Part shown: piece after piece, positions 12,043-64,000 of the stretch
How the letters are laid out: each line of letters begins with the position of its first letter
How positions within the stretch are numbered: the first letter of the stretch is position 1
NCBI RefSeq assembly: GCF_013315695.1
Contig: NZ_CP054353.1
Direction: 5' to 3' (one strand)
Source of the DNA: Escherichia coli
Lineage (GTDB): Bacteria; Pseudomonadota; Gammaproteobacteria; Enterobacterales; Enterobacteriaceae
DNA length: 64,000 bases
The notes under the pieces: generated by a model
Database searches by the model: none
Seen by the model: only the letters and a program-made list of their open reading frames with translations
What the model was told of the DNA's origin: nothing
Made by a program: the position numbers and the translations under genes

Positions 12043-12197
12043 TACAAGGGAACTTTTTAAGATTATTGCGGAATGGCGAAATAAGCACCTAACATCAAGC
12101 AATAATAATTCAAGGTTAAAATCAATAACTTATTCTTAAGTATTTGACAGCACTGAATGTCAAAACAAAACCTTCACTCGCAACTAGAATAACTCCC

Positions 12198-12290
12198 GCT
12201 ATCATCATTAACTTTATTTATTACCGTCATTCATTTCTGAATGTCTGTTTACCCCTATTTCAACCGGATGCCTCGCATCCGGTTTTTTTT
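12198..12290 (+). ncRNA. micF: MicF antisense sRNA (represses ompF translation)
   Basis: Sequence GCTATCATCATTAACTTTATTTATTACCGTCATTCATTTCTGAATGTCTG... ending in hairpin plus T8, matching micF as I recall it, divergent from ompC. Confidence 0.85.
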
Positions 12291-15944: not shown

Positions 15945-16030
15945 CCTGTAGGCCAGATAAGACGCGTTAGTGTCTTATCTGGCATTTGCACTGAATGCCA
16001 GATGCGGCGTAAACGCCTTATCCGTCCTAC
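15945..16030. repeat. REP-like palindromic units between convergent rcsB and rcsC
   Basis: GATGCGGCGTAAACGCCTTATCCG-type units read in sequence. Confidence 0.6.
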
Positions 16031-62103: not shown

Positions 62104-62249
62104 CGTACACGATTCCGTGCCCAATGTATACGTTGCAACGCAGTGAAAATTCCTCTGAAAACGTCTCGCAAAGGCTGAAACTGGCAGATGTCAAAGGCCC
62201 GGGATAACCGTAATGTCGCGTCATCATAAATATCAGGTGACGGACAACC

Positions 62250-63209
62250 ATGACCGAATCAACAACCTCCTCCCCGCATGATGCGGTGTTTAAAACCTTT
62301 ATGTTCACACCCGAAACCGCACGGGATTTTCTGGAAATACATCTACCAGAGCCGCTGCGCAAGCTTTGCAACCTGCAAACTTTACGCCTGGAACCCACCA
62401 GCTTTATTGAAAAAAGTTTACGCGCTTACTACTCGGATGTTTTGTGGTCGGTGGAAACCAGCGACGGTGAAGGCTATATCTACTGCGTGATTGAACATCA
62501 AAGTTCCGCGGAAAAGAATATGGCCTTTCGGCTAATGCGCTATGCCACTGCCGCCATGCAACGTCATCTGGACAAAGGCTATGACAGAGTCCCGCTGGTG
62601 GTACCATTGCTGTTTTATCATGGCGAAACCTCGCCCTACCCGTACTCACTCAACTGGCTGGATGAGTTTGACGATCCGCAACTTGCCCGGCAGTTGTACA
62701 CCGAAGCTTTTCCGTTGGTGGATATCACCATCGTACCTGACGATGAGATCATGCAACATCGGCGTATAGCTCTGCTGGAACTGATTCAAAAGCATATTCG
62801 CGACCGCGATTTAATCGGTATGGTCGACAGGATCACCACGCTTTTGGTTAGAGGCTTCACTAATGACAGCCAGCTACAAACGCTGTTTAATTATCTGCTG
62901 CAATGCGGCGATACCTCCCGTTTCACCCGTTTTATTCAGGAGATTGCCGAACGTTCACCACTACAAAAGGAGAGATTAATGACTATTGCTGAACGGCTGA
63001 GGCAGGAAGGGCATCAAATTGGCTGGCAGGAGGGTAAGATTGAAGGTTGGCAGGAGGGGAAATTGGAGGGTTTGCAGAAAGGCAAAGTAGAAGGTATGCA
63101 TGAACAAGCCATTAAAATTGCCTTGCGCATGCTGGAACAGGGCTTTGAACGTGAGATTGTGCTGGCGACAACCCAACTCACTGATGCTGATATTCCGAAC
63201 TGTTATTAA
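62250..63209 (+). CDS. yfaD: Rpn-family (YhgA-like, transposase_31 / PD-(D/E)XK) recombination-promoting nuclease homolog
   Basis: 319-aa ORF; N-terminal nuclease-like domain and C-terminal repeat module ([25 protein letters not shown]); I recall yfaD being renamed rpnE. Confidence 0.8.
62979..63209 (+). CDS. candidate in-frame internal small protein (RpnS-like C-terminal domain of YfaD) with its own ribosome-binding site
   Basis: Strong SD AAGGAGAG 7 nt upstream of in-frame ATG 62979 ([19 protein letters not shown]...); the same SD and start sequence is duplicated at ypaA. Confidence 0.45.
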
Positions 63210-63221
63210 AAGGAGAGATTA

Positions 63222-63407
63222 ATGACTATTGCTGAACGGCTACGGCAGGAAGGACATCAAATTGGCTGGCAGGAGGGTAAATTAGAAGGCATGCATGAAC
63301 AAGCCATTAAAATTGCCTTGTGCATGCTGGAACAGGGCATTGAGCGTGACCAGGTGCTCGCGGCCACTCAGCTAAGCGAAGCCGATCTGGCAGCGAATAA
63401 CCACTAA
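63222..63407 (+). CDS. ypaA: YpaA, free-standing paralog of the Rpn C-terminal domain
   Basis: 61-aa ORF; first 33 nt including the SD are identical to the internal start region of yfaD. Confidence 0.7.
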   Translation: MTIAERLRQEGHQIGWQEGKLEGMHEQAIKIALCMLEQGIERDQVLAATQLSEADLAANNH

Positions 63408-63447
63408 TTAACACAGGCCCACAGCCGATCCCCATGGGCCTTTGATA

Positions 63448-64000
63448 TCAATAACTACCTTTTACGCGTGGCCCATTTTTGCCTGATTTAAACATCGCCA
63501 GTCGTTGATCCAGGGCATCGCTGTAGAGCATCGTGTCAACGCCAACAGCGACAAAGTTCGCTCCCCACGCCAGGCATTGCTGCGCCATATCAGGAGCCAC
63601 AGCCAGAAAACCAGCAGCTTTACCCGCAGCACGGATCCGCCGAATGCTGGTTTCAATAATTCGCTGCACTTCCGGGTGCCCGGCGTTATCCGGGTAGCCC
63701 AACGAGGCAGAAAGATCCGCAGGTCCAATAAACACGCCATCAATTCCTTCGACGCCGAGGATTTCGTCCAGGTTATCCAGTGCTGTTTTACTTTCCACCT
63801 GCACCAGCAGACAAAGCGAATCGTTGACGTGCGCCATGTAATTCTCAATGCGTCCCCAGCGAGCAGCCCGTGCCACACTGGCCCCAACACCACGCTCACC
63901 GTAGGGAGGATAGCGCGTGGCAGACACCACCTGACGTGCCTGATCGGCAGTATCGACCATTGGGATCAGTAGAGTTTGCGCGCCAATATCCAGGACTTGT
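63448..64000 (-). CDS. rhmA: 2-keto-3-deoxy-L-rhamnonate aldolase (HpcH/HpaI family), N-terminal part beyond window end
   Basis: Minus-strand frame open from 63448 to the window edge; the listed 170-aa ORF is only the C-terminal part (…[16 protein letters not shown]…). Confidence 0.8.

Follow-up and report, generated by a model that had tools for sequence, protein, structure and literature searches.

Introduction

The closest described systems are the rpn genes of Escherichia coli K-12, where each of the five genes has an internal start that yields a small protein, RpnS (Zhong et al. 2023, PNAS, PMC10400941). In the same study RpnA_S and RpnB_S blocked the toxicity, SOS induction and nuclease activity of the long proteins, and RpnC_L was blocked only by a small protein of equal repeat number. 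RpnA_S was found to be a three-helix dimer in which helix 1 carries a 4-aa repeat of strain-variable number, and its structure points to the corresponding helical domain at the C-terminus of the long protein as the site of contact (Zhong et al. 2023, PMC10400941). Ribosome profiling and SPA tagging have both revealed initiation inside K-12 rpnE (Zhong et al. 2023, PMC10400941; Meydan et al., bioRxiv 520783). The identity between the RpnE C-terminus and YpaA had been noted earlier (Meydan et al. 2019, bioRxiv 520783), and Zhong et al. (2023, PMC10400941) name ypaA as rpnE_Ss, a second copy of RpnE_S that is derived from rpnE and is detected in K-12 by SPA tag and ribosome profiling. They also report that rpnSs genes can be lost by deletion or fusion, that rpn genes are without terminal repeats or defined ends, and that in some species the free-standing RpnS goes under the label DUF4351. 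When K-12 RpnE was assayed for recombination, toxicity and SOS induction it showed no activity, and RpnA-D63A was inactive (Kingston et al. 2017).

We found no later literature on YpaA function. The duplication, the nested antitoxin gene and repeat-number specificity were already described in 2023, and what is added here is descriptive: the frequencies, the allele pairs, the range of copy number and which of the two tails is ancestral. An earlier note, made from the letters of the DNA, had described the 3' end of yfaD (rpnE) and ypaA as a tandem, partially deleted duplication shaped by a short repeat, and its claims are taken up below where the evidence bears on them.

Results

Layout of the locus

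The window is the whole 64,000-nt stretch of E. coli DNA that was analysed. Near its end the rpnE-ypaA module sits between glpC (end 62057) and the convergent yfaU/rhmA, with the following genes and signals.

62250 to 63209, plus strand: rpnE (yfaD), an open reading frame of 319 aa for the "L" (full-length) form of Rpn; its stop codon lies at 63207-63209
62967 to 62974, plus strand: internal Shine-Dalgarno sequence AAGGAGAG within rpnE, read from the sequence
62979 to 63209, plus strand: rpnE_S, 76 aa, read in frame from Met244 of RpnE with its ATG at 62979, the presumed antitoxin
63210 to 63217, plus strand: second AAGGAGAG, the Shine-Dalgarno sequence of ypaA, with the rpnE stop codon immediately before it, read from the sequence
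63222 to 63407, plus strand: ypaA (rpnE_Ss), an open reading frame of 61 aa with its ATG at 63222, the free-standing copy of RpnE_S
63415 to 63441, no strand assigned: G+C-rich hairpin between the convergent ypaA and yfaU (rhmA), scored on the minus strand and with a weak T tract on the plus strand

The hairpin is likely to be a terminator shared by ypaA and yfaU (rhmA). Rfam and tRNA scans gave nothing near rpnE-ypaA; tRNA genes are absent from the window, and the Rfam matches elsewhere in it, the MicF sRNA (12197-12290, plus strand) and a naRNA4 (REP325-type) element (15951-16027, minus strand), are ordinary E. coli features.

In RpnE a PD-(D/E)XK nuclease domain at the N-terminus is followed by a helical domain at the C-terminus. 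Residues 8-209 belong to Pfam PF04754 Transposase_31 (294.6 bits, E=4.4e-88, cut-off 21), and the protein exceeds the cut-offs of NF007418, the NCBIfam equivalog for RpnE (709.5 bits, cut-off 583), and of TIGR01784, the Rpn family model (172.9 bits, cut-off 52.1). Its residues 1-256 align without offset to positions 1-256 of the RpnA model, and residue 63 is an Asp equivalent to D63 of RpnA. The search of full-length RpnE against PDB sequences gave no meaningful match. In PADLOC-DB v2, which has no Rpn model, residues 208-300 (window 62871-63149) weakly match the candidate PDLC01084 "C3a178 putative invertase" (E=7.6e-5) and YpaA matches nothing; the RpnE match probably reflects the helix-turn-helix-like nature of its C-terminal domain.

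The small gene nested in rpnE is a consistent feature, with the internal Shine-Dalgarno sequence and the in-frame ATG conserved in all the loci read. A simple consensus scan for a sigma-70 promoter inside rpnE found none, and the internal transcript is taken from the literature. The second small gene, ypaA, is a separate open reading frame directly downstream of rpnE with a ribosome-binding site of its own, which is the layout of a free-standing RpnSs.

Both small proteins are predicted to have a helical fold like that of RpnA_S. YpaA finds the RpnA-S chain of PDB 7TH0 by phmmer (E=4.7e-5), and the only gap in that alignment, 12 residues, falls exactly at the repeat array. Foldseek against the PDB also returns 7TH0 as the top match (probability 0.99, E=0.1). 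In the AlphaFold models, whose confidence is moderate (pLDDT 72-74, falling to 55-62 within the repeats), helix 1 covers residues 3-53 of RpnE_S and 3-37 of YpaA and short helices follow, so that YpaA is predicted to have three helices. Since the modelled first helices differ by 16 residues, the 16 extra residues of RpnE_S would lengthen helix 1. Pfam PF27070 HTH_Rpn_C is recorded, in precomputed annotation, on homologous small proteins and on 61-aa neighbours of rpnE. DUF4351 (PF14261) gave no match at E<=1 for RpnE, RpnE_S or YpaA.

The tandem duplication

The alignment and its direct repeats divide the 3' end of the module into two copies.

62965 to 63207, plus strand: copy 1 of the tandem duplication, 243 nt
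63208 to 63407, plus strand: copy 2 of the tandem duplication, 200 nt

The duplication that the earlier note had proposed is confirmed, and ypaA is a tandem duplicate of the nested rpnE_S including its ribosome-binding site. Direct repeats pair 62965-63055 with 63208-63298 (89%) and 63069-63191 with 63264-63386 (80%), and a global alignment of 62963-63209 with 63210-63407 gives 165 identities in 182 positions outside gaps (90.7%). The local alignment score is 65, compared to 8.0 +/- 1.1 for 500 shuffles. The similarity reaches well past the first 33 nt: with the first 50 nt removed the score is still 57, compared to 7.5 +/- 1.0 for shuffled sequence. Homology begins 14 nt upstream of each ATG (AAAAGGAGAGATTA), and this leader of 14 nt is identical in both copies, thus the copied part takes in the ribosome-binding site but at most 14 nt upstream of the ATG. 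At the protein level YpaA aligns to positions 244-308 of NF007418, the RpnE model (E=2.8e-30), compared to 1.9e-7 for the RpnA model. The identity is unevenly spread over the copies: the head, made up of the first 20 codons, agrees at 56/60 positions, the middle, 16 codons that follow the array, at 46/48, and the tail at 36/60.

The 12-nt repeat array

The two copies also differ in the number of units in an internal array.

63024 to 63095, plus strand: array of six 12-nt units in rpnE and rpnE_S, from Tandem Repeats Finder and unit parsing
63267 to 63290, plus strand: array of two 12-nt units (WQEG KLEG) in ypaA, from unit parsing

Tandem Repeats Finder reports 63024-63095 as a 24-nt period present in 3.0 copies. 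One unit of 12 nt encodes 4 amino acids, and the length difference between the copies is exactly 48 nt, or 16 codons. The earlier note had described ypaA as lacking a 19-residue expansion; 16 of those residues are truly extra in RpnE and the other 3 are present in ypaA too. The absence itself holds in this strain, where two units stand against six, and it is limited to this strain because both arrays are polymorphic. Among 27 E. coli loci and additional database proteins the unit number runs from 1 to 9 in rpnE and from 1 to 7 in ypaA. Calling ypaA a partially deleted copy is likewise apt for the window alone: K-12 has the opposite polarity, with 1 unit in rpnE and 2 in ypaA, and neither copy is therefore simply a deleted version of the other.

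Written as (rpnE, ypaA), the window is (6,2) and K-12 is (1,2), and elsewhere we read (6,3), (6,1), (4,2), (7,5), (9,2), (9,5), (9,7), (2,5) and (9,3). In all the loci read, length changes in either array are multiples of 12 nt and in frame. The comparison between E. coli genomes that the note had called for, with both copies changing in number from strain to strain in whole units, fits its suggestion that slippage or unequal recombination shapes the array. Head and middle haplotypes are found in either copy across strains and are identical within some genomes, and because they are common to both copies this indicates that sequence has been exchanged between rpnE and ypaA.

The unit numbers of rpnE and ypaA are unequal in 22/22 two-copy loci from complete genomes, which represent 11 distinct combinations. 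A rule that the two numbers are never equal was considered and dropped: if the observed numbers were paired at random only about 5% would match, so that 0 matches in 11 combinations is not significant, and L034, a locus from a metagenome, carries 2 units in each of rpnE and ypaA.

Tails and ancestry

The ends of the two copies are the part in which they are least alike.

about 63150 to 63209 (also given as 63140-63209), plus strand: rpnE-type C-terminal tail, 60% identical to the ypaA tail
63345 to 63407, plus strand: ypaA-type tail (ERDQVLAATQLSEADLAANNH), ancestral-like by its likeness to single-copy rpnE tails

To place the tails we used an exact-pattern scan of one genome per species, which yielded five Escherichia loci, from E. 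albertii, E. whittamii and three further representatives, one of them labelled "E. coli". All five are single-copy and occupy the same genomic site. Their rpnE tails are 79-94% identical in nucleotides to the ypaA tail, with downstream flanks at 78-88%, compared to 62-73% for the rpnE-type tail. Several arrays of other Escherichia end in LQKG KVEG, as E. coli rpnE arrays do. The single-copy E. coli alleles that we read always have the ypaA-type tail. The C-terminal divergence that had been attributed to ypaA is real in that only 36 of 60 tail positions are identical, but it is the rpnE tail that departs from the ancestral form and not that of ypaA. Because other Escherichia carry one copy with a ypaA-type tail, the rpnE tail would be the derived one. 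The most economical account of these sequences would have a one-copy ancestor, with ypaA keeping its tail and terminator and rpnE keeping the array type and gaining a divergent tail.

Within the tail, 7 of the 11 codons that encode the same amino acid in both copies differ synonymously. Because the synonymous differences are near saturation, we infer that the rpnE-type tail may be of old or foreign origin rather than the product of fast change after a recent duplication. Two possible donors were pursued and rejected. A tblastn search against plasmids matched only mislabelled chromosomes, and a sensitive blastn search for another E. coli paralogue found the tail at the rpnE locus only. One single-copy allele (L029, 1403-1636, minus strand) has a hybrid tail, rpnE-like in its first half and ypaA-like in its last half.

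Distribution in E. coli

The two-copy form was counted with a 131-nt query spanning the junction of the rpnE tail and ypaA, run against 5426 complete E. coli genomes. The junction is present in 3133 of these and is 95-100% conserved. About 2280 genomes are single-copy, because only the half of the query that also lies inside rpnE matches in them, and 42% of all E. coli genomes searched are without ypaA. The genomes with the rpnE-type tail are exactly the 3133 with the junction, and the tail is itself 95-100% conserved; only 1 of the 5426 complete genomes has two such tails. The allele of the window is not of the K-12 type. It matches E. coli MS 21-1 at 100%, and identity of at least 99% over 62700-63470 is reached in only 39 of 5420 genomes.

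Loci with three copies are found in metagenome and draft assemblies (L034, L035, L040 and others), where rpnE is followed by a free-standing small gene with an rpnE-type tail and then by ypaA. Their unit numbers, in that order, are 2/5/2 in L034 (1006-1617), 9/5/1 in L035 (922-1605) and 1/3/? in L040 (924-1301).

A few loci have a damaged rpnE. The nuclease part is truncated beside Tn7-like tnsA/tnsB in L033 (1-985) and split by a frameshift in L037 (519-1201) and L041 (471-1073), and the small open reading frames are intact in each.

The NCBI pipeline annotates ypaA (63210-63407, starting from the rpnE stop codon) as a pseudogene, "incomplete; missing N-terminus", in the strain of the window and in many RefSeq genomes. 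Among the loci read this annotation applies to L002-L005, L007, L009, L010, L015, L016, L018-L022 and L024-L027, in which the open reading frame, ribosome-binding site and ATG are intact. The pseudogene call looks like an annotation artefact caused by the similarity of YpaA to the C-terminus of RpnE.

Discussion

Our preferred reading, to which we give a probability of roughly 85%, is that rpnE contains a nested antitoxin gene for RpnE_S, that ypaA is a duplicate of this gene, and that the repeat array sets the pairing between the small and long proteins. The internal ribosome-binding site and the ATG at 62979 (Met244) would yield the C-terminal 76 residues as a separate RpnE_S. If it resembles RpnA, RpnB and RpnC, the long protein would be a DNA-cutting toxin with a proposed antiphage role, held inactive by the small protein, which would pair with the C-terminal helical domain identical to itself. 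Helix 1 would be longer or shorter according to the number of units, and this would decide which small and long proteins fit one another. Inside one copy or between the two, replication slippage and unequal recombination could then change the number of units, remove a copy or add a third.

The toxicity of RpnE_L from this strain, its neutralisation by RpnE_S and any role of YpaA are inferred from the paralogues. The inactivity of K-12 RpnE on overexpression possibly comes from an excess of its own small protein. If the rule found for RpnC applies here, YpaA would be non-cognate for the resident RpnE_L in most strains, because the unit numbers differ in all 22 of the two-copy loci from complete genomes. 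The earlier note had suggested that repeat number could tune an interaction between the small protein and the nuclease domain. Number specificity has been shown for the paralogue RpnC, which agrees with the first part of this, but the RpnA_S structure shows a contact with the corresponding helical domain at the C-terminus of the long protein rather than one with the nuclease domain.

A different role for YpaA could be that of a second-specificity module, which stores an alternative helix length with the ancestral tail and can be swapped into rpnE or can neutralise RpnE variants that are not resident in the strain. Several observations are in line with this, including the unequal unit numbers in 22/22 two-copy loci and their 11 combinations, the haplotypes common to both copies, and the reported loss of rpnSs by fusion (Zhong et al., PMC10400941). 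The single-copy allele L008 is also suggestive, in that its tail is of the ypaA type and its array of the rpnE type, the array being identical in DNA to that of rpnE in L004. However, with about 5% matches predicted by chance the lack of a match among 11 combinations carries no significance, and L034 has 2 units in rpnE and ypaA alike. We consider this proposal tentative and on balance rather unlikely. The same doubt applies to an extended form of it, in which YpaA is a stored alternative specificity and the rpnE-type tail was imported from a distant rpn allele during a single origin of the two-copy form in E. coli; this too we would treat as speculative.

It is improbable that ypaA is a decaying relic, a pseudogene without a function of its own in which the repeat differences are neutral slippage. 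The annotation as incomplete in many genomes, that of the window's strain included, would fit such decay, as would the 42% of E. coli genomes without ypaA and the fact that its unit number is usually unmatched to that of rpnE. Yet no two-copy locus read has lost the ypaA open reading frame, its ATG or its Shine-Dalgarno sequence, the length changes are without exception multiples of 12 nt, and the junction is 95-100% conserved across 3133 genomes. In addition, YpaA has been detected in K-12 by SPA tag and ribosome profiling (PMC10400941), and the small open reading frames are kept where the nuclease domain of rpnE is broken or truncated (L033, L037, L041).

That rpnE is an insertion-sequence transposase (ISNCY) with the duplication as a by-product of transposition is very hard to sustain: the NF007418 name "ISNCY family transposase" and a 14-nt imperfect inverted repeat bracketing the module (62187-62200, GATGTCAAAGGCCC; 63436-63449, GGGCCTTTGATATC), of a kind seen in 0/40 shuffles and partly conserved in K-12, E. 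albertii and E. whittamii, are outweighed by the same glpC-yfaU site in all the Escherichia loci read, the presence of rpnE once per genome at its locus and never on plasmids, the lack of a target-site duplication adjoining the inverted repeat that would mark an insertion sequence, the lack of terminal repeats or defined ends in rpn genes (Zhong et al., PMC10400941), and a 3' arm that overlaps the terminator hairpin, which may account for the repeat.

Under our preferred reading of a nested antitoxin gene and its duplicate, the locus is an instance of a published theme. The rpn genes are a described case of an antitoxin encoded within its toxin gene, in which a hypervariable repeat sets partner specificity, and in the rpnE-ypaA pair a copy of the antitoxin module also forms a gene of its own. 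The strain survey supplies concrete pairs of rpnE and ypaA alleles with which the role of YpaA can be probed.

Comparison with known systems

The nearest relative is the same locus in K-12, where rpnE, rpnE_S and ypaA share with the window the glpC-yfaU site, the nested start, the free-standing downstream copy and both types of tail. The difference is one of alleles only: rpnE has 1 unit (299 aa) in K-12 and 6 units (319 aa) in the window, while ypaA has 2 units in both and the two YpaA proteins differ at a few residues (L24M, R34C, F40I, D41E).

RpnA_L and RpnA_S (PDB 7TH0) resemble the present pair in an 11-residue N-terminal sequence, the helical fold and the nested layout of the genes. The crystallised RpnA_S is without repeat units at the place where RpnE_S and YpaA have 12-24 extra residues, and, unlike ypaA, no free-standing second copy of it has been described in the literature. 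Such a copy does exist for rpnC, as some E. coli strains have rpnC/rpnC_Ss, where the nested small gene was independently duplicated in tandem (Zhong et al. 2023, PMC10400941). That is a different paralogue at a different locus, and it is to RpnC that the experiment on repeat specificity belongs.

A more distant likeness, an analogy drawn by Zhong et al. (PMC10400941), is to the specificity subunits of EcoR124I and EcoR124II, in which the number of a 4-aa helix repeat (TAEL) also changes specificity. These proteins belong to an unrelated family, and there the repeat sets the length of a DNA spacer rather than the pairing of one protein with another.
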